Shown: one piece after another, positions 50,140 to 58,758 of the stretch
Numbering within the stretch: the stretch's first letter is position 1
Layout of the letters: each line of letters begins with the position of its first letter
NCBI GenBank assembly: GCA_041576165.1
Contig: JBFGLM010000003.1
Span: 64,001-128,000 of the forward strand
Length of the DNA stretch: 64,000 bases
DNA from: Acidimicrobiia bacterium
GTDB taxonomy: Bacteria > Actinomycetota > Acidimicrobiia > Spongiisociales > Spongiisociaceae
Direction of reading: 5' to 3'
Notes under the pieces: generated by a model
Told to the model about the DNA's origin: nothing
Seen by the model: the letters and a program-made list of their open reading frames with translations, nothing else
The model's database searches: none
Made by a program: the position numbers and the translations under genes

Positions 50140-51114
50140 TCAGCCGGCGTCCTGCATTTCCCGGCCGCGTGGAATGATCTCTCGTCCGGGTCCTTCCGCT
50201 TCGTCGTCGACCATCTGGGCCGGGAATCCCGGAGCGAGAATCCGAGCGCCGACGGCCTCTTCGAGGCGTCGGATGATGTTCGGCGACCACTCTCGGGGCC
50301 CGTAACGCTCGATGGCGTCGTCGAATATGTCCACCAGCAGCGGAGACACGTCGAGTGGAACCTGGTGTCGGTCGGCGATGGCCTGAAACAACCCGATGTC
50401 CTTGGCAACGAGGTCCATCGTGAAGTTGATGTCCCGGGAGCCGTTGAGGATCACCTGGCTCTCGGTCTCATGAACAAACGAGTTCCCCGACGAAATGCGA
50501 ATGGCCTCGTACGTGGTGGTGAGGTCCATTCCGGCTTGCTGAGCCGTGACCAGGGCTTCGGCCAGAGACACCAGATTGGCCGTAGCAAGGTAGTTGGTGA
50601 GCACTTTCAGAATGGAGGCGGAGCCCAGCGGACCGGTGTGCAATATGCGGCGGCCCATCACTGTCAGCAGCGGGAGCATCGCCTCGAATGTGGCCCGGTC
50701 GGCGCCGCCGAAGATCGAGATGTTGCCGGTTGCCGCCCGGTGGCACCCGCCCGAGACCGGACAGTCGATGGCAGAGGCCCCGGTTGCGATGACCTTGGCG
50801 CCGAGGCGCTGCACTTCGTCTGGATCAGTCGTGCTCATCTCGGCCCATGTCTTGCCCGCCGACAATCCGGCCAGGACACCGTCGCTCGCTTCGAGCACCG
50901 CAGCCGAGATCTCCGGGCTCGGGAGGCACGTGATGACCACGTCGCACCGCTCGGCCATGGCCTTGCCCGAGCCGACGGTGGCTGCCCCGGCGTCCACCAA
51001 CGGTGCCAGCGCGGCCGGATCCAGGTCCCGGACCGTGAGGTCGATGCCATTTCGCAGGAGGCTGGTCGCCAGCTTGCTACCGACGTTGCCCAATCCGATG
51101 AAGCCCACCTTCAT
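50140..51114 (-). CDS. 3-hydroxyisobutyrate dehydrogenase-family NAD(P) oxidoreductase
   Basis: MKVGFIGLGNVG, DCPVSGG and LKVLTN motifs. Confidence 0.88.
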   Translation of the reverse strand: MKVGFIGLGNVGSKLATSLLRNGIDLTVRDLDPAALAPLVDAGAATVGSGKAMAERCDVVITCLPSPEISAAVLEASDGVLAGLSAGKTWAEMSTTDPDEVQRLGAKVIATGASAIDCPVSGGCHRAATGNISIFGGADRATFEAMLPLLTVMGRRILHTGPLGSASILKVLTNYLATANLVSLAEALVTAQQAGMDLTTTYEAIRISSGNSFVHETESQVILNGSRDINFTMDLVAKDIGLFQAIADRHQVPLDVSPLLVDIFDDAIERYGPREWSPNIIRRLEEAVGARILAPGFPAQMVDDEAEGPGREIIPRGREMQDAG

Positions 51115-51267
51115 GTCTATTCCTTTCGTGCGCCGGGCAGGGGGAACCGGCGGGGAGCGCCGCGGCCGGGCCGGCCCGGACGATACATCGTCGCCGCACG
51201 ATCCCATCCGAGAAACCAGGGCTCAGAGGGGTTGATCCGGGGAACGGACCGGCTCATACTGCGGCCG

Positions 51268-52269
51268 ATGTTGACCGAGTCCCAGCTCCACCAATTCGCC
51301 GAGCAGGGTTACCTGGTTGTGCCCGACGTACTGTCCGAGGAGGAGCTGGATCCGGTCGTCGACGAGTATGAGGCGGCGCTGGGACGGGCCGCCCGCCGCC
51401 AGCGCGAGCTCGGCAACCTGACCTCCACTCGTGCCGAGCTGGCATTCGCCGACCGCTACACAGCGCTGATCACCGAGAACCCCGACGTTTTCTACTACCT
51501 CGGCATCTCGCTGCCGCTCGACTACGAGGAACTCGACCCCGAACTCGTCCGGGTCCACACCGGGCCGGCCCTGTTCGATCTGCTCCGCCATCCGGCACTG
51601 CTCGACATAGTGGAACCAATTGTCGGTCCCGAGATCGCCCTGAACCCCGTGCTGCAAGCGCGCCTCAAACCGCCTCAGCGGCTTCTGACCGGGGCGATGG
51701 CCTCATACTCGAACGTCGGCGCCACCACATGGCACCAGGACTTCGGGGCGGTCATGGACGACGCCATCGACACCAACATGCTGACGGTGTGGGTCGCGAT
51801 GACCGACGCCACCGAGGACATGGGTTGCCTGGTGGTCCAGCCGGGGTCGCACCGGGAGGGAACGCTCACGCTGCACTGCCCGGGTGTGGCCAACCCCGCT
51901 GAGAACTACATTCCTCGAGCCATGCTGGATCGTCACAGCATCGCACCGGTGCCACTGCCGTGTACCCGCGGAACCCTCGTGCTGCTATCCAAGTACACCG
52001 AGCATGGAGCGCTGCCGAATGTGTCCGATCAGCTGCGGTGGAGCTTCGATCTGCGCTATCAGCCGGCCGGCCAGCCCACCGGCCGACCAGCGTTTCCCTC
52101 CTTCCTGCTCCGCAGCCGGTCAGATCCGGACCGCGAGGTCACTGATCCCGCCGAATATGCGGCTGCTTGGGAGGCAACTCGGGGCCGGATCCTGGCGGGC
52201 GAGATGGACGGCCCGCTCTACGAACAGGGGCGCTGGCTCAAGAACCGCGATAACCCCGTGTGCGCCTGA
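51268..52269 (+). CDS. Phytanoyl-CoA dioxygenase (PhyH)-family Fe(II)/2-oxoglutarate enzyme
   Basis: F.EQGYLVV, WHQD, QPGSH, EHGA and RWSFDLRY motifs. Confidence 0.88.
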   Translation: MLTESQLHQFAEQGYLVVPDVLSEEELDPVVDEYEAALGRAARRQRELGNLTSTRAELAFADRYTALITENPDVFYYLGISLPLDYEELDPELVRVHTGPALFDLLRHPALLDIVEPIVGPEIALNPVLQARLKPPQRLLTGAMASYSNVGATTWHQDFGAVMDDAIDTNMLTVWVAMTDATEDMGCLVVQPGSHREGTLTLHCPGVANPAENYIPRAMLDRHSIAPVPLPCTRGTLVLLSKYTEHGALPNVSDQLRWSFDLRYQPAGQPTGRPAFPSFLLRSRSDPDREVTDPAEYAAAWEATRGRILAGEMDGPLYEQGRWLKNRDNPVCA

Positions 52270-53490
52270 TCACAGCAGGAGCCGCTCTTCATATTCGACC
52301 CTGCTGAGGATGCGCGGCTCGTCCTCGGTGATCAGCACCATGTCCTCTATTCGCACCCCGCCACCGCCTGGGGTGTCGGGTACCCAGACCAGCGGTTCCA
52401 CCGCAAACACCATGTTCGGCTGGAAGTCATATGTGGGCGCGCCCGGCAATGTTTCGCCGATGTAGGGGGGCTCGTTGGCGCCCATGCCGATGCCGTGTCC
52501 GATGAACAAGCTGAACAGGTGCTCGGCCAGCCCGTAGTCACCGATCTTGTTGATGATGGCGTCGGCCACGTCCTTGTTGGTGAACCCGGGACGCATCTTC
52601 TCGAAGCCGGCGTGCAAGCCCTCGTACACTGCGGTGTAGATCTTCTTCTGCGCCGCCGACGGCTTGCCCACGATGGTGGTGCGGCCGATATCTGAGAAAT
52701 ACCCGTTCCACATCGCACCGATGTCGATGAAACAGAGGTCCTGGTTCCGCATGATCTTGTCGGTGGCCAGCCGGTGGGGTGGTGACATGTGCTCGCCCGA
52801 CGCCACGAATGGCGTGATCACATGGGCCATCTCTCCGCCCAGGTAGAACAGGGTCTGCATGGCGTCTCCCGCCACCTCCAGCTCGCGGCGGCCCGCCCGG
52901 GTCTCATCGAGCGCCCGCTGGGTGACGGAATCTCCGATGGCGCAGGCCTCTTCGATCACGGGGATCTCCAGATCGGATTTCACCCACCGGGCGTGGTGGA
53001 GCACCGTGTCGCCATCGACCAGCTCCAGGTCGGGCAAGTGCCGGCGCATCGCCTCCACAAAGCTGATGTTGGCCTGGTCTACCCCCAGCCGGCCCTGTCC
53101 GTAGCCGCGATCCCGCAGGATCGGCCCGAGTATGTCTTTGACGAACCCGTCTACCAGCTCCGCCTGTTCCATGATCGGGATGGCGTGCGCCTCGCCGATC
53201 CACGACATCCCGAAGTTGGCCTTGTCGATCTCCCCGCCGGAACACAGCAAAACCGGGTCCGCGTCGGGTCCCAGCAAAGCGCCGTTGAGCGACGTGGTCT
53301 TGCCCGCGATCAGCTGGGCGCGCAAGGCCGTGAGGTAACGCACGTTCTCGTCTTTCCACACCAGCAACGCGTCGATATCCGAGTCCCGCAGCGAGGCCTG
53401 GGCGGCGGCAACGCGCTCCCGGCGTAGCGCGGCAAAGTCGTACCGGTCCTCCCAGTCGACCGCGAACGGGCCCTTGGCGTATCCGGACAT
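52270..53490 (-). CDS. M24-family metallohydrolase (second paralog)
   Basis: ENVRY, FIDIG...YFSD, GHGIG, AVEP and RIEDM; start ATG 53490. Confidence 0.85.
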   Translation of the reverse strand: MSGYAKGPFAVDWEDRYDFAALRRERVAAAQASLRDSDIDALLVWKDENVRYLTALRAQLIAGKTTSLNGALLGPDADPVLLCSGGEIDKANFGMSWIGEAHAIPIMEQAELVDGFVKDILGPILRDRGYGQGRLGVDQANISFVEAMRRHLPDLELVDGDTVLHHARWVKSDLEIPVIEEACAIGDSVTQRALDETRAGRRELEVAGDAMQTLFYLGGEMAHVITPFVASGEHMSPPHRLATDKIMRNQDLCFIDIGAMWNGYFSDIGRTTIVGKPSAAQKKIYTAVYEGLHAGFEKMRPGFTNKDVADAIINKIGDYGLAEHLFSLFIGHGIGMGANEPPYIGETLPGAPTYDFQPNMVFAVEPLVWVPDTPGGGGVRIEDMVLITEDEPRILSRVEYEERLLL

Positions 53491-53515
53491 CGGGTGCCCT
53501 CCTCTCGGCAGATCA

Positions 53516-53531
53516 TGCATCGTATAAGATC
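53516..53531. promoter_or_regulatory. Putative GntR operator in a divergent promoter
   Basis: TGCATCGTATAAGATC. Confidence 0.65.
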
Positions 53532-53564
53532 GGCGTTCAGTTTGGCCGTTCCGAGAGGTGATGG

Positions 53565-54560
53565 GTGACAGACATCCCGGTCCAGGATCCGGCAAGTGGG
53601 CTCGACCCTGTCGATTTCGAACCGGTGGGACCCAAAGTAAAAGAACCCTTCCCGGATCTGGTGCTTCCCGATCAGACGGGCGCCCTCGTCGATCTGCATG
53701 CGCATCGGGCGGGTCGACGGGCGATTGTTGTATTCCACCGCAGCGCCGACTGGTGACCGTGGTGCAAGATGCAGCTGGTCGAGCTGCAGGAATCGACTGC
53801 CGCGTCCGGCATTGCCGTGTTTGCAATCAGCTACGACCCGGTAGATGTCCTGGCCGGCTTTGCCCGGGAGCACAACATCACCTATCCGTTGCTGGCCGAC
53901 GTTGGCTCAAAAGCGATCGAAGAGCTCGGCTTGCTTCACCAGGACATGGACCGGGAACGCGCCTACTGGGGTCGTGAGACGGAGGACCGGCACCGCCGGC
54001 TGCCGTACCCGGCCACTTTCGTGCTCGACGAAGACGGGCTCGTAGTCGACAAAGTGATCGAGCGGTCACACCGCAACCGGCCGACGGGCCAGATGTTGCT
54101 CGAGGATCTCGGCGTCGGACCGACGGCGGGGGAGGTGCAGGCCTCCGCGGCCGGTGACGGGCTCGCCGTCACCGCCTGGGTCCCGGCGGCCGACTACTTC
54201 CCGAACCAGATCTTCCGGGTGGGAGTTCGGGTGGCAGTGGCGGATGGGTTACATCTGTACGTACCGCCGACGCCTAGCTGGTACCAGCATCTCGACGTCT
54301 CCATCGACGCGCCACCGGGCGTCTACTGGGACCCGCCCCACCTCCCGGAGGGAGCATCCTTCCGGGTCGACGGGCTCGATGAAGAGTTCTGGGTTGTGGA
54401 CGGCAGCGTGACCCTGTCGTGTCCGGTGCATATCCACGAGGACGTGGGAGACGTCGTTCTCGGTGTGAGGGTGCGGTACCAGGCGTGCAGCTCGGACGCG
54501 TGCCTGATTCCCGACAACCTGGCGTTGGAGCTGCCGCTGCGGAGCCGGGGGAAGCTGTGA
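53565..54560 (+). CDS. Selenocysteine-containing AhpC/TSA-like redoxin (UxxC) fused to a DsbD N-terminal domain
   Basis: ORFs 53565-53756 and 53769-54560 are in frame and join as FHRSADW-TGA-PWCKMQL. Thioredoxin-fold motifs AISYD, YPLLAD and PATFVLD are present, and the C-terminus has LHLY...YQACSSDACLIP. Confidence 0.88.
53770..53788 (+). promoter_or_regulatory. Putative bacterial SECIS element
   Basis: TGCAGCT-GGTCG-AGCTGCA: a perfect 7-bp stem with a G-containing apical loop, 13 nt after the in-frame TGA (53754-53756). Confidence 0.75.
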
Positions 54561-55468
54561 CGTACGAGGTGCGCGTCGGCGGCTATGCCCCCCGTGACTC
54601 GACCCACAGCCAGGCCGTTGCGCATTTCGCTGAGCGCTTCAACCGGCGCTTGGGCCGTGATGACGCAGTGGACATCTTGTGGAACATCCTCGACGAGAGT
54701 CGGCCCGCTTCGGACCTGCTGTCGATGGTCGAGGCCGGCGAATTGACCTGGTGCTACTTCTCGTCGAGCTACCTGGGCTCCCGGGTGCCGGAACTCAACG
54801 CACTGGAGCTGCCGTTTCTCTTCTCCAGCCTCGACGAGGCGCATGCCGCCCTCGATGGCGAGTTCGGTGCGTGGCTCACGGCCGCCACCGAGCGGCGCAC
54901 GCCTTACGAGGTGCTCGGCTACTGGGACAACGGGTTTCGTCATTTCACCAACCGGCTTCGGCCCGTCCGGCAGCCATCCGACGTCACTGGGATGACGGTG
55001 CGACTGCAGCCGAACGCCATCCATGAGGCGATGGTGGAAGCTTGGGGCGGCGTTCCGCGGCCGGTGGAATTGAGCGAAGGTATCCGGCTCATCTCCGCAG
55101 GCGAAGTCGACGCCCAGGAGAATCCACTCGCCAACACCGTGGCCTACGAGGTCGATCAGGTACATCACCACGTCACCATGTCCGGCCACCTGTACGGGGC
55201 GAGAGGCCTGTACGCCAACCGCGCCGCGCTCGCGGCCATGCCACCGGTGGTTGCCGCAGCAGTCCGGGCCGCCGCCTGCGACGCGATCATGTTCCAGCGC
55301 GGTGCCGCCGCCGCGTATGAGGCCGAACTACGGCGCCGGCTCGAAGGACGTGGCGTCGAGTTCGTGGACCTCACCGGACCAGAGCGGGAGCAGTTCGTCG
55401 CTGCCACCGCTGGTGTCATCGAACGAGCACGTGCGGATCAACCAGCGGACACCCCGTGGCCAGCGTGA
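54557..55468 (+). CDS. TRAP transporter DctP-family solute-binding protein (no signal peptide)
   Basis: LELPFLF, GYWDNGFRHF and VDAQENP motifs; GTGA overlap with the upstream stop. Confidence 0.8.
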   Translation: MTYEVRVGGYAPRDSTHSQAVAHFAERFNRRLGRDDAVDILWNILDESRPASDLLSMVEAGELTWCYFSSSYLGSRVPELNALELPFLFSSLDEAHAALDGEFGAWLTAATERRTPYEVLGYWDNGFRHFTNRLRPVRQPSDVTGMTVRLQPNAIHEAMVEAWGGVPRPVELSEGIRLISAGEVDAQENPLANTVAYEVDQVHHHVTMSGHLYGARGLYANRAALAAMPPVVAAAVRAAACDAIMFQRGAAAAYEAELRRRLEGRGVEFVDLTGPEREQFVAATAGVIERARADQPADTPWPA

Positions 55469-56220
55469 CTTGGGCGTTCGCAGGGCGAACGGTAGCGATC
55501 ACCGGGTCGGCTGTCGGAATGGGCCAGGCTGCGGTGCACGCATTCGCCGGAGCCGGAGCTCGCGTGTTCGGGCTCGATGTCGATGAGGATCGGGGCCGCG
55601 CTGTGTGCGACGCCGCCCGGAATGCCGGCGGCGACGCGACGTTTCTGCCGGCCGATGTCACGTCCAAGCCGCAAGTCGTGAGGGCGTTCGAAGAGATCGC
55701 CCGGTCCGGCGGGCTCGACGTGCTCATCAACAACGCGGGCGGGTTCTGGGAGCAGCTGACCACCGAGGAAACGTCAGAGGAGGAGTGGGACAAGGTCATC
55801 GACCTGAATCTCAAGAGTGTGTTCCTGTGCTCGCAGGCGGCCGCTCCCATGCTGAAGGTGTCGGGAGCCGGGCGGATCATCACGGTCAGCTCCCTCGCCG
55901 GCCAGACGACTATGTACCGGTCGTCTCCGCCGTATTCCGCTGCCAAGGCGGGGGTGCTGGCCCTGAGCCGGGTCCTGGCCTACGAACTGGCCGAGTTCGG
56001 GGTCACGTCCAATGCGATCGCGCCCAGCGCCGTGCTCACCGAGCGAGTCAAGGAGGTTCGGGGTCCAGAAGAGCGGGCCAGGACGCAGGAGACCATTCCT
56101 CTCGGTCGGTACGGCGAGGTAGAGGACATCGTCAATTGGATGCTCTTCCTGGCGTCTGATGAGGCGGCCTACATGACCGGTCAAACCGTGTCAGTCAACG
56201 GCGGGAGGTTCATGGCATGA
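55456..56220 (+). CDS. Short-chain dehydrogenase/reductase
   Basis: TGSAVGMG, NNAG and YSAAK motifs. Confidence 0.9.
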   Translation: MASVTWAFAGRTVAITGSAVGMGQAAVHAFAGAGARVFGLDVDEDRGRAVCDAARNAGGDATFLPADVTSKPQVVRAFEEIARSGGLDVLINNAGGFWEQLTTEETSEEEWDKVIDLNLKSVFLCSQAAAPMLKVSGAGRIITVSSLAGQTTMYRSSPPYSAAKAGVLALSRVLAYELAEFGVTSNAIAPSAVLTERVKEVRGPEERARTQETIPLGRYGEVEDIVNWMLFLASDEAAYMTGQTVSVNGGRFMA

Positions 56221-57062
56221 TCGGCTTTGTTGGATTGGGACGGATGGGTTTCCCCATGGCCCGCAACCTGGCGGAGGCGGGCCATCAGGTGGTTGCCGTC
56301 GATTCATCGCCTCAGGCGGTTTCCCGAGCTCGTGACGCCGGTATCGACGCGTCCTCGGACCTCGCCGCCTTGGCGAATGTCGACACGGTGTGCTCATCGT
56401 TGCCGGACACCGCCGAAGTCGAGCAGGTGTATGCCGGCGTTCTGCTGGACGAACTGGCTGAAGGCGCTATCTGCGTGGATCTGTCCACCATCTCCATCCA
56501 GGGTTCGCGGCGAATCGCGGCGGTGGCGGCCGAACGCGGGATCTCGTTTCTGGATGCGCCTGTCAGCGGGACGGTCCCGCATGCCGCGGCAGCCACCCTG
56601 GCGATCATGGTTGGGGGCGACCCCGAGGCGCTCGCCTCCGTCCGTCCGATTCTCGATGTGCTCAGCTCGACGGTTCACCATATGGGACCGAATGGCGCCG
56701 GGTTGATCATGAAACTGATCACGAACCGGCTGCTCAGCGCGTGTACTGCGGCTATCGCCGAGTCGGTTCTCAGCATGGAGAGGAACCACATCGACCTCGA
56801 AGAAGGTTTGGCGTTCCTGGCGGGCAGCGCAGTGCCCAAGCTGATCGATTACAAAGGGCCGGCGTTGCGAACCCGGGACTATTCGCCGAACTTCACCGTG
56901 GACCTGATGCGTAAAGACCTCCGCCATGCGGCGGCGCGGGCCGGTCCCGACCGCATGGCGCGGCTGGTGCACGAGATCTTCGACGAAGCCGCCGCCCTGG
57001 GTCACGGCGACGAGGACATTGCGGCCATCATCGAAACGTTCGGCGCTGAGGTGTCGAGTTGA
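56217..57062 (+). CDS. 3-hydroxyisobutyrate/tartronate-semialdehyde reductase-family oxidoreductase
   Basis: GFVGLGRMG, DAPVSG and MKLITN motifs. Confidence 0.88.
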   Translation: MIGFVGLGRMGFPMARNLAEAGHQVVAVDSSPQAVSRARDAGIDASSDLAALANVDTVCSSLPDTAEVEQVYAGVLLDELAEGAICVDLSTISIQGSRRIAAVAAERGISFLDAPVSGTVPHAAAATLAIMVGGDPEALASVRPILDVLSSTVHHMGPNGAGLIMKLITNRLLSACTAAIAESVLSMERNHIDLEEGLAFLAGSAVPKLIDYKGPALRTRDYSPNFTVDLMRKDLRHAAARAGPDRMARLVHEIFDEAAALGHGDEDIAAIIETFGAEVSS

Positions 57063-57274
57063 CTGACGACGGCCGGCATGATCGGAAGCGGGCGGCGATG
57101 GCTGCCAATCTGGCCGAGCAAAGCGGGCGTTCGCTGGAGGATTGGGTAGAGCTGGTCGACCGGGCGGAAGTAGCGGGCTTCATGGAGGTCGTGGGATGGC
57201 TGAAACAGACACACGGCCTCGGTCATTTCCAGGCCCGGCTGGTGGCGGAAGCGCACCGGGACCGGCCTGGTTGA
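57059..57274 (+). CDS. DUF4287-like small protein
   Basis: NLAEQSGRSLEDW...WLKQTHGLGHFQA motif. Confidence 0.7.
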   Translation: MTDDGRHDRKRAAMAANLAEQSGRSLEDWVELVDRAEVAGFMEVVGWLKQTHGLGHFQARLVAEAHRDRPG

Positions 57275-57328
57275 GCGGGCAGTACCCGCCCCCGCCCGGT
57301 AGCGTGACCTGGTTTGAAGGAGGAGCCC

Positions 57329-57715
57329 ATGGCTGAGCTGATCATGTTCGACGAGCAGGAGCAGGTGGAGCGTGGCGACGGGATCACCAGCGTCCGCCTG
57401 ACGCCTCATCCGCTGGAGGAGCAAGGTTTCACAGTGGGTGTGACCACCTTTCCGCCGGGCACCAGCATCCGGCTCCACAGCCACAACTGCATCGAGCAAG
57501 TAACGATGCTGGAAGGTGAGGGCATCGTCGTGCTCAATGGTGTGGAGCGAGAAGTCAAGCCGTACGACACCACGCAGGTACCGGCCGGCGACTTCCACCG
57601 CTTCATCAATCGGGGCGCCGGTCAGATGCGCATCCTCTGGGTTTACGGTGCGATAGATGTGACCCGCACCTTCGCCGACACGGGCGAGACCGTTCCGCAG
57701 TTCCACCGACCATGA
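57329..57715 (+). CDS. Cupin-domain protein
   Basis: LHSHNCIEQ...PAGDFHRF motif; AGGAGG RBS. Confidence 0.85.
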   Translation: MAELIMFDEQEQVERGDGITSVRLTPHPLEEQGFTVGVTTFPPGTSIRLHSHNCIEQVTMLEGEGIVVLNGVEREVKPYDTTQVPAGDFHRFINRGAGQMRILWVYGAIDVTRTFADTGETVPQFHRP

Positions 57716-58758
57716 GCCGCTATCCCGTTTCCCGCCTGCACACCTTCATCCAGGACGTGCTCGTGGCCCAGGACGTCCTGCCGGAACACGCCGAGATAAC
57801 TGCCACTCGAATGCTCGACGCCGATCTACGCGGCCGAAGCGGCCACGGCATCATCCGGCTACCTCTCTACACCTCGCGCATTCGGGGCGGAGGTACCAAC
57901 TTGCGGCCGGACATACGACTGGTGAGAGAAACCCCGGTCAGCGGCCTGGTCGATGGAGATGACGGGCTGGGGCACCCGATTCTCGAGTTCGCCTCGGATA
58001 CGGCGATTGCCAAAGCGTCCGAGGCCGGCATGGCGTGGGTGGGAACCCGCAACTCGAATCACGCCGGCGCCGCCGGGGTCTGGGTGAACAAGGTTGTGAA
58101 AGAAGGCTTGATCGGTATCTACATGGCCGTCGCCAACGCCAACGGGATGCCGCCGTGGGGCGGACGGGAGCGGCTGCTCGGTACGAATCCGATCGCGATC
58201 GGTATCCCGACCAAGAACCGTCCCGCGTTTCAGCTCGACATCGCGACCACCGTCGTGTCGCACGGCACTATCAAAGTCGCGGCTCAGGCGGGCGAGCAGA
58301 TGCCGGAGGGGTGGGTGGTTGACTTCGAGGGGAACCCGATCACCGACCCCGACAAGGCCCACGAAGGCTTTCTCTTGCCGATTGGCGGGTACAAGGGCTC
58401 GGGGCTCAACATCGTGATCGGCCTGCTCGCCGGCGCCATGAACGGAGCCGCCTTCGGCCGCGATGTGATCGATTTCCGGGCCGAAGTCGGCCGTAACACG
58501 AATACCGGCCAGGCCCTGTTCGTCATGCGGCCCGACCTGTTTGGCGACGAGGACGACGTGCTCGGGCGCTTTGACCTTTCGCTCGACGAGTTGCAGGACT
58601 CCGAGTCAGTGACCGGGGAGCCGATTCGCCTTCCCGGCGCCCAAGCCGAAGTGACCGAAAGCGAGGTGCGGGCCACCGGAGTAGAGGTTCCCGTGGCGCT
58701 CCTGGCCCAGCTCCGGGAGCTGGCCGACGAGTTCGGGGTGGAGGATCGGTTGGAGTGA
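57712..58758 (+). CDS. Ldh_2-family dehydrogenase (malate/L-lactate/ureidoglycolate dehydrogenase-like)
   Basis: ADLRGRSGHG, NSNHAG, GTNPIA and GGYKGSGL motifs. Confidence 0.88.
   Translation: MSRYPVSRLHTFIQDVLVAQDVLPEHAEITATRMLDADLRGRSGHGIIRLPLYTSRIRGGGTNLRPDIRLVRETPVSGLVDGDDGLGHPILEFASDTAIAKASEAGMAWVGTRNSNHAGAAGVWVNKVVKEGLIGIYMAVANANGMPPWGGRERLLGTNPIAIGIPTKNRPAFQLDIATTVVSHGTIKVAAQAGEQMPEGWVVDFEGNPITDPDKAHEGFLLPIGGYKGSGLNIVIGLLAGAMNGAAFGRDVIDFRAEVGRNTNTGQALFVMRPDLFGDEDDVLGRFDLSLDELQDSESVTGEPIRLPGAQAEVTESEVRATGVEVPVALLAQLRELADEFGVEDRLE

Follow-up and report, generated by a model that had tools for sequence, protein, structure and literature searches.

Selenoproteins in which a peroxiredoxin-like (Prx-like) fold carries a thioredoxin-type UxxC motif have been known as a kind since 2004-2005. 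A family defined by distant Prx homology together with a thioredoxin-like UXXC motif was described from the Sargasso Sea in 2005 (PMC1088965), and the available text of a 2026 review names the 'Prx-like thiol:disulfide oxidoreductase' (PF00578; UxxC, UxxU) as a selenoprotein family 'predicted with high confidence' (PMC13188914). In DsbD, electrons are passed from the thioredoxin-like gamma domain to the immunoglobulin (Ig)-like alpha domain and from there to DsbC, DsbG and CcmG, as the available parts of PMC3322552 set out. The only mention of DsbD in the available text on prokaryotic selenoproteomes concerns a rhodanese/DsbD fusion, TsoB (PMC13188914). Here we describe a gene in a stretch of 64,000 nucleotides (nt) from an Acidimicrobiia bacterium (assembly GCA_041576165.1, contig JBFGLM010000003.1, positions 64,001 to 128,000), hereafter called the window and numbered from its first letter. 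The region is very probably a single gene for a selenoprotein of 331 residues, in which a Prx-like domain is followed by a DsbD_N domain. Against the background of the known Prx-like UxxC proteins it is a new architectural variant, the novelty lying in the fusion to DsbD_N and in the near-universal use of selenocysteine (Sec).

By sequence reading, the gene is a single frame of 331 codons on the forward strand (53565-54560), from a GTG start to a TGA stop at 54558-54560. Its sole internal stop is a TGA at codon 64 (53754-53756), within H-R-S-A-D-W-(TGA)-P-W-C, and the 267 codons beyond it contain no further stop or frameshift. A preliminary description, made from the sequence of the window, had placed one in-frame TGA at the first cysteine position of a thioredoxin-type CxxC (W-U-P-W-C) and had predicted 267 more codons and a 331-residue product; coordinates, codon counts and homologs bear this out. 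It had also excluded a change of code on the ground that TGA serves as a stop elsewhere. All nine local genes from 50140 to 58758, the selenoprotein gene included, are terminated by TGA, so that TGA is an ordinary stop in this organism and global recoding is rejected.

Relatives were collected by scanning one genome per species (185,579 species), in which 421 stretches encode a relative. The best 80 of these, the window locus and two relatives from a search within the phylum form a set of 83 loci, from Actinomycetota, Chloroflexota, Methylomirabilota, Armatimonadota, Verrucomicrobiota, Myxococcota, Binatota, Planctomycetota, Acidobacteriota, Gemmatimonadota, Pseudomonadota and KSB1. The column of codon 64 is TGA in 80 loci, TGC in two and TGT in one (96% Sec). 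Cysteine, which the preliminary description had proposed to look for at this column, thus occurs in 3 of the 83 loci, and also in the full-length database proteins P0042, P0054 and P0067. Every Sec form with a readable frame keeps the U-x-x-C motif, and 78 of the 83 loci retain the two redox motifs together; the five exceptions are a Cys-to-Gly change (L057), broken or truncated frames (L081, L084 and L105) and a contig end (L086). In an alignment of 30 rows, U64, C67, C308 and C313 are invariant, and so are G22, P23, P30, R59, S60, W63, P149, R172, H230, Q306 and P316. The fusion is uncommon within the phylum of the window: two of 60 relatives have it, and it was not found at E <= 1e-40 in an even sample of 400 other genomes, from each of which no more than five candidates were scored. 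Contigs from sequencing runs of two studies bear the same TGA with zero differences, two of the contig sets (X5 and X6) covering the stretch only in part. At 53734-53792, contigs of other organisms match over just some 55 nt, comprising the active site and the hairpin described below, and produce a spike in depth (31.1 in X4 and 15.9 in X6), which fits strong conservation of this segment at the DNA level.

The preliminary description had pointed to a perfect hairpin starting 13 nt after the TGA, and it is present as TGCAGCT (53770-53776), GGTCG (53777-53781) and AGCTGCA (53782-53788); this 19-mer folds at -10.5 kcal/mol. In the available text of PMC13188914, a bacterial selenocysteine insertion sequence (bSECIS) is modelled with a loop of 3-9 nt, a stem of 4-16 base pairs (bp), a G in the first two loop positions, 16-37 nt between UGA and loop and a minimum free energy of at most -7.5 kcal/mol. 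The hairpin in the window falls within all of these ranges, with a loop of 5 nt (GGUCG, beginning with GG), 7 bp, 20 nt and -10.5 kcal/mol. The earlier claim that its geometry is that of a bacterial SECIS is upheld by these values and by the compensatory changes among homologs. The corresponding 19-mers fold at -7.5 kcal/mol or below in 78 of the 80 Sec forms, the other two reaching -7.2 (L083) and -7.4 kcal/mol (L094). Across the 80 Sec forms (76 distinct), 94.4% of the stem cells are paired, compared with 8.8-42.7% when the partner strand is slid, and none of 500 shuffles attained the observed covariation. Pairs 19-33, 20-32, 21-31, 22-30 and 23-29 are intact in all 76 distinct Sec rows. Two-sided changes occur at four of the seven stem pairs (GC/AU 63/12, CG/UA 72/3, and CG/GC 75/1 and 43/6), and some rows compensate by non-synonymous changes on each side (with Gln-Leu becoming Glu-Phe in L083, or Glu becoming Gln together with CTC to CTG or TTG). 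The second Leu codon, whose third base is paired, is never CTC (0/79), compared with 48 of 80 for the first Leu codon, and the loop always contains GU. In two of the three Cys forms the stem is broken (-1.5 and -4.0 kcal/mol), while in the third the Val codon of the loop has become GCG, a Val-to-Ala change. A scan of 53000-55000 against Rfam at E <= 10 gave two rows alone, mir-246 and isrG, both at the level of chance. Judged from these comparisons, the hairpin is under selection at the RNA level.

The genome is a bin of 161 contigs with 7.5% contamination. It contains two copies each of selA and selB, tRNA-Sec (selC) and selD, all above curated cut-offs; the machinery that the preliminary description had named as a check is therefore in place. 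The selD gene (C1:171385-172317, minus strand) is a selenoprotein gene in its own right: codon 11 of the matched stretch is an in-frame TGA, within G-A-G-U-A-C-K, at the classic G-A-G-U-x-C-K site, and a similar hairpin with a GUC loop (GGCGCAG/GUC/CUGCGCC) comes after it. The contigs carrying the Sec machinery are similar in composition to the window contig (GC content 0.65-0.66; tetranucleotide correlation 0.99, and 0.91 for a 3-kb contig). The two selA-selB pairs lie at C24:55512-58621 and C100:605-3619, and there are two strong tRNA-Sec matches, at C1:33376-33466 and C145:1292-1382; the contigs bearing these doubled genes are alike in composition. Given the contamination of the bin, the doubled selA-selB may stem either from duplication or from another strain close to the first. 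The broad family has a further selenoprotein gene in this genome, the C64 paralogue (L122:330-1001, minus strand), which has 224 codons, an AhpC/TSA domain only and the motif D-W-U-P-Y-C. It directly follows an open reading frame (ORF) for a membrane protein and encodes a product 34% identical to the fusion over the shared domain.

SelA was found above the cut-off in all seven other TGA-form genomes tested, and no match to it was found in the three Cys-form genomes, the completeness of which was not reported. By these homology searches, the TGA form tracks the presence of SelA. In one of the genomes (G458), selA (C2:163718-165071) is in two adjacent pieces covering model positions 1-235 and 233-454, which suggests an assembly frameshift, and in one Acidobacteria genome selA (L103:4340-5740, plus strand) is located directly downstream of the homolog. 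That codon 64 is a selenocysteine codon is strongly supported by six independent lines drawn from sequence comparison: its conservation, the selection on the hairpin, the agreement with the bSECIS model, the loss of SECIS features in the Cys forms, the machinery in the genome and the tracking of SelA.

For the domain and structure analyses, Cys was used as a stand-in at codon 64. The N-terminal part matches AhpC/TSA (PF00578, residues 25-161, E 9.6e-22, 77.7 bits against a cut-off of 26) and the C-terminal part DsbD_N (PF11412, residues 207-318, E 5.1e-7, 30.2 bits against a cut-off of 25); DsbD_N scores 31.9 and 34.8 bits in two homologs. The AlphaFold2 model of the full-length protein, calculated with 30 homologs, has a mean predicted local distance difference test (pLDDT) score of 92.9 and a predicted template modelling (TM) score of 0.89, and is confident across codon 64. 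The N-terminal domain resembles AhpE (5id2, Z 20.3), BcpB (5epf, Z 19.9), ResA (2f9s, Z 15.6) and CcmG (1kng, Z 12.6). The signature of canonical Prx active sites, PXXXTXXC, is described in the available text of PMC3322552 as absolutely conserved. Here its place is taken by F57 at -7 and A61 at -3 from U64, each at least 90% conserved in the 30-row alignment. The protein therefore has a predicted Prx fold with an active site of the thioredoxin/TlpA type, and is not a canonical peroxiredoxin. Canonical Prx also share a conserved catalytic Arg, to which R59 or R172, both invariant in the alignment, may correspond.

When the whole model was searched with Foldseek and VIA, matches to the Prx-like domain dominated, and for this reason a separate model of the C-terminal domain was made (pLDDT 95.8). 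Among the Foldseek matches listed, the 13 best are N-terminal domains of DsbD or ScsB (E 6.5e-6 to 3.5e-4, TM score 0.45-0.64), followed by unrelated beta-sandwiches. The fold matches include 1l6p, 1vrs, 1z5y and 1jzd, among which are disulfide-linked complexes of nDsbD with cDsbD, CcmG and DsbC. A profile of the domain matches E. coli DsbD-alpha (1l6p, E 0.0022) and lays Y-Q-A-C-x4-C-x-x-P, with C308 and C313, onto both redox-active cysteines of YQGCADAGFCYPPE of DsbD-alpha, with a one-residue gap. A phmmer search of the C-terminal domain alone against the sequences of the Protein Data Bank (PDB) gave no match. By sequence and predicted fold, the C-terminal domain is a homolog of DsbD-alpha with its cysteine pair on the catalytic pair. 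The DsbD-alpha-like pair CSSDAC of the preliminary description, codons 308-313, is confirmed in this alignment. No transmembrane family was found in the Pfam scan of the protein, which consists of two soluble domains and lacks the membrane-embedded beta domain of DsbD proper.

In the 63 residues before U64 there is no hydrophobic stretch (the maximum hydropathy over 12 residues is 0.70), and there is no earlier in-frame start upstream of the GTG at 53565; for these two reasons this copy is predicted to be cytoplasmic. The closer relatives likewise lack a hydrophobic N-terminus. The absence of a signal peptide noted at the outset holds for these proteins; in distant members, from Acidobacteriota, Pseudomonadota, Gemmatimonadota and KSB1, the N-terminus is longer by 20-30 residues, which clearly resemble a signal peptide or a lipoprotein leader. 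In a quick, unrooted tree the signal-bearing members mostly form one clade (support 95), in which the three Cys forms are nested, with at least two changes needed. This placement is consistent with replacement of Sec by Cys. In a U-P-P-C subgroup (L089-L098, L102, L107, L108 and L115, with U-P-A-C in L091) the N-terminus is extended by E-Y-x-D-E-F-G... without a signal peptide, and several members end in a basic C-terminal tail. In another subgroup (L045, L048, L049 and L059; proteins P0069-P0110), some 60-80 extra conserved residues without a Pfam match follow DsbD_N; an ORF for an OsmC-like domain ends at the gene start in L048, L049 and L059. The gene tree mixes phyla, with a Verrucomicrobiales row among Acidimicrobiales and with Pseudomonadota and Gemmatimonadota rows inside the Acidobacteriota clade, which could be due to horizontal transfer or to binning errors in metagenome-assembled genomes.

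In the mechanism that we propose, UGA codon 64 would be decoded as Sec during translation, SelB with Sec-tRNA(Sec) being recruited by the stem-loop 20 nt downstream within the coding sequence (CDS). From the sequence data, this mode of decoding is highly probable. The product would be a soluble protein, cytoplasmic in this organism, with two redox centres. The first would be a selenenylsulfide/selenol-thiol pair, U64-x-x-C67, where the first helix of the Prx-like thioredoxin fold has its N-terminus, and the second the C308-x4-C313 disulfide/dithiol of the Ig-like, DsbD-alpha-homologous domain. Reducing equivalents would pass between the two, within or between chains, and the clients of the alpha-like domain may in turn be thioredoxin-fold or sulfenylated proteins. 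Selenium, a faster attacking and leaving group, would accelerate the exchange step; such a benefit in rate is expected from general chemistry and is remarked upon in the available part of PMC1088965. By analogy, we give an even chance to the protein being a thiol:disulfide oxidoreductase relay, like the gamma-to-alpha transfer of DsbD, in one soluble chain without a membrane domain. An internal electron relay had already been suggested in the preliminary description. A wider version is put forward tentatively. In it, the protein would be a self-contained, membrane-free counterpart of the DsbD gamma-to-alpha relay with selenium near-obligatory at the donor centre, cytoplasmic in the Actinomycetota, Chloroflexota and Methylomirabilota forms, while the exported Acidobacteriota and Pseudomonadota forms may act in the periplasm as soluble reductases coupled to transporters of the CcdA type. 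If this were true, DsbD-alpha-type Ig domains, so far known as dispensers of reductant in the periplasm, would also have cytoplasmic clients.

Several observations weigh against parts of this interpretation. When folded singly, the 60 nt from the TGA onwards prefer another structure and are no stabler than shuffled sequences (z -0.88), so that the case for the hairpin rests on comparison and not on the energy of single sequences. The Q-L-V-E-L-Q peptide encoded by the hairpin is also kept in the Cys forms, and part of the conservation may therefore be at the protein level. Sequence support for the C-terminal domain is modest (30.2 bits in Pfam, E 0.002 for the PDB profile, TM scores of about 0.5-0.6), and the cysteines are spaced by four residues, compared with five in E. 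coli DsbD-alpha. DsbD-alpha domains are known from the periplasm while this protein has no export signal, and no precedent was found for a DsbD-like role in the cytoplasm. Nor is there a conserved partner gene in the nearest upstream (77 loci) or downstream (78 loci) ORF. Recurrences among neighbours are limited to clades (OsmC 3, TetR 3, SDR 4, HhH-GPD 2 and MFS 3; SelA once and AhpC/TSA twice), and many neighbouring ORFs are without a Pfam match and may be spurious in GC-rich DNA.

As the main functional alternative, the same selenoprotein might instead be a peroxidase, in which U64 attacks hydroperoxides as in Sec-containing Prx and glutathione peroxidases, C67 resolves the selenenic acid and the DsbD-alpha-like pair recycles the centre. 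U64 is at the position of the peroxidatic Cys, and the BCP/PrxQ/AhpE peroxiredoxins are the closest folds (Z 19-20), ahead of ResA (15.6) and CcmG (12.6); yet the nearly invariant F57 and A61 break the PXXXTXXC signature, and the motif is a W-C-x-x-C of the thioredoxin/TlpA type. Three of 77 loci have an OsmC-like gene immediately upstream, and 2 of 78 lie next to another AhpC/TSA gene. In Caulobacter, as far as the available text of PMC3322552 goes, DsbD-family alpha domains feed a peroxiredoxin pathway, but PrxL, which also lacks the Prx residues, had no peroxidase activity. We consider a peroxidase function rather unlikely.

If the TGA were a true stop, the product would be a protein of 263 residues starting at the ATG at 53769, 12 nt past the TGA, and the upstream 63 codons would be a separate small ORF or leader. 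Gene callers do give this form for 113 of the best 120 homologs listed. The upstream codons, however, are in frame at every locus, encode the opening strands of the thioredoxin fold and hold the conserved G22, P23, P30, R59, S60 and W63; in many homologs the TGA is not followed by a Met (but by K-T-Q, R-A-Q and others), the short product would lack the first active-site residue, and the Cys forms are continuous. A true stop is accordingly very improbable. Two separate genes are rejected, since the upstream part is conserved, is in frame at all loci and is modelled with a confident fold across the junction. The preliminary description had itself raised homologs existing as two proteins as a point that would speak against it; the loci keep one frame across codon 64, with no break in the Cys forms.

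Read-through of the UGA as Cys or Trp, by near-cognate suppression or a local variant of the code, is a further alternative to selenocysteine. Under selenium shortage, Cys can take the place of Sec at such codons in some bacteria. In three database proteins the column of codon 64 holds W, although this most simply reflects a pipeline translating TGA as Trp. The nine neighbouring stops, the SECIS-type hairpin with its compensatory changes past the codon, and the fact that SelA accompanies the TGA form and not the Cys form leave very little probability for such read-through. An assembly error or a recent pseudogene is of negligible probability: the bin is fragmented into 161 contigs with 7.5% contamination and 3 of the 83 homologous loci are broken or truncated elsewhere in the gene, but the frame of the gene is otherwise free of stops and frameshifts, and assembly error, which had been named beforehand as a possible refutation, is excluded by the recurrence of an identical TGA in 79 other independent assemblies and in contigs of the runs of two studies, none of these having TGC or TGT.

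The features of the gene are collected in Table 1. Its stop shares a GTGA overlap with the GTG start of the next gene, for a protein of the DctP family (TRAP solute-binding; 54557-55465, plus strand). No signal peptide is evident at the N-terminus of the latter, although binding proteins that act outside the cytoplasm usually have one.

Table 1. Positions in the window of the predicted selenoprotein gene and its parts.
Feature	Positions	Strand	Remarks
Shine-Dalgarno-like GAGAGG	53553..53558	+	6 nt before GTG start; role suggested by sequence
Predicted selenoprotein CDS, 331 codons + TGA stop	53565..54560	+	Full-length homology in other genomes; AlphaFold2 model spanning the TGA junction
AhpC/TSA domain (thioredoxin-fold, Prx-like), residues 25-161	53637..54047	+	Pfam PF00578 and structural matches
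UGA codon 64, predicted selenocysteine U64, first residue of U-P-W-C	53754..53756	+	TGA in 80/83 loci; column invariant in 30-row alignment
Cys67 codon, partner of U64 in UxxC	53763..53765	+	Invariant in 30/30 rows; U/CxxC in all 82 loci with readable frame
Putative SECIS hairpin, 7-bp stem and GGUCG loop, UGA-to-loop 20 nt	53770..53788	+	Also encodes (M)QLVELQ
DsbD_N domain (DsbD-alpha-like, Ig-like beta-sandwich), residues 207-318	54183..54518	+	Pfam PF11412, profile and fold matches
C308-S-S-D-A-C313, predicted second redox pair, within Y-Q-A-C-x4-C-x-x-P	54486..54503	+	Both Cys invariant in 30/30 rows

In public databases the family is largely present in truncated form. Of the 120 best-scoring entries listed, 113 align with no more than 79% of the query and so begin after the TGA or later, and seven are full length, with C in three, W in three and a gap in one at the column of codon 64. 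The expectation that standard annotation would split or truncate the gene is thereby borne out. The homologs are named 'peroxiredoxin' or 'protein-disulfide reductase DsbD family protein', and none of the names seen mentions selenium. The latter name, given by NCBI to a truncated homolog, overstates the case, since the protein has two soluble domains and no membrane domain. Neither the fusion nor the C64 paralogue reached any model of NCBIfam release 20, despite the many selenoprotein-specific models therein. A search of titles and abstracts found no description of a DsbD_N fusion selenoprotein, and the supplementary lists of surveys may already contain members. The preliminary description had presented the gene as a hidden selenoprotein; as a claim of novelty this stands for the fusion and the near-universal use of Sec, and not for the Prx-like UxxC family, which has long been predicted. 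A widespread selenoprotein family is thus hidden in public data behind entries without their N-terminal active-site part. The conserved 45-nt segment with the UGA and the hairpin, together with the alignment, would suffice for a model that recovers the full-length genes. Among the loci collected, Sec is near-constant and the few Cys forms are in genomes where no SelA match was found, so that nature itself provides a clear comparison of thiol-disulfide exchange with and without selenium. Since the fusion lacks an export signal, its DsbD-alpha-type domain also raises the question of the role of such domains outside the periplasm.

When compared with the Prx-like UxxC selenoproteins, as described in the available text of PMC13188914 and PMC1088965, the protein shares the PF00578 fold and a UxxC that replaces the TxxU of Prx, with Sec in first place; function is predicted there, as it is here. 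Those proteins are described in these texts without a second domain, whereas a C-terminal DsbD_N domain with an invariant Cys pair is added in the window protein, the comparison being one of descriptions. In Caulobacter crescentus, ScsB acts with TlpA, PprX and PrxL, and members of the Prx family, along with Prx-like proteins, are maintained in reduced form by an alpha domain of the DsbD family; the canonical Prx residues are absent from PrxL, as they are from the window protein. According to the available text (PMC3322552), those proteins are separate, exported, Cys-only and fed by a membrane transporter, while the window protein is a fusion with Sec and without an export signal. TsoB is, like our protein, a selenoprotein with a DsbD-related part, and differs, in the available description, in its rhodanese partner, another Sec motif and two Sec residues (PMC13188914). 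In scans of the fusion and the C64 paralogue, the TsoB-type NCBIfam model gave no match.

The SECIS element of E. coli fdhF has a short GC-rich upper stem and a G-G-U-C-type apical loop about 20 nt past the UGA. Compared by these general features, not by alignment, the window hairpin is similar in its short GC-rich stem, its G-G-U-C-type loop and its spacing of about 20 nt.

The C-terminal domains of Mycobacterium tuberculosis DipZ, an actinobacterial DsbD-related protein, are a thioredoxin-like domain followed by a beta-sandwich, and are attached to a CcdA-like membrane domain. The match of our model to DipZ (5cyy; Z 12.5, root-mean-square deviation 3.6, 156 aligned residues, model range 10-291) is mostly to the thioredoxin-like part, and DipZ is without Sec. 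E. coli DsbD likewise combines, in one polypeptide, a thioredoxin-fold centre of the CxxC type with an Ig-like domain bearing a Cys pair in a Y-Q-x-C...C-x-P-P/E context, and the cysteine pair of its alpha domain aligns residue for residue with ours save for one gap. It differs in its membrane (beta) domain, in a thioredoxin fold that is not first in the chain, in the Cys at its first centre and in its C-x5-C spacing. The window protein, by contrast, is predicted to be cytoplasmic, and its thioredoxin-fold domain is like that of Prx/BCP rather than DsbD-gamma.

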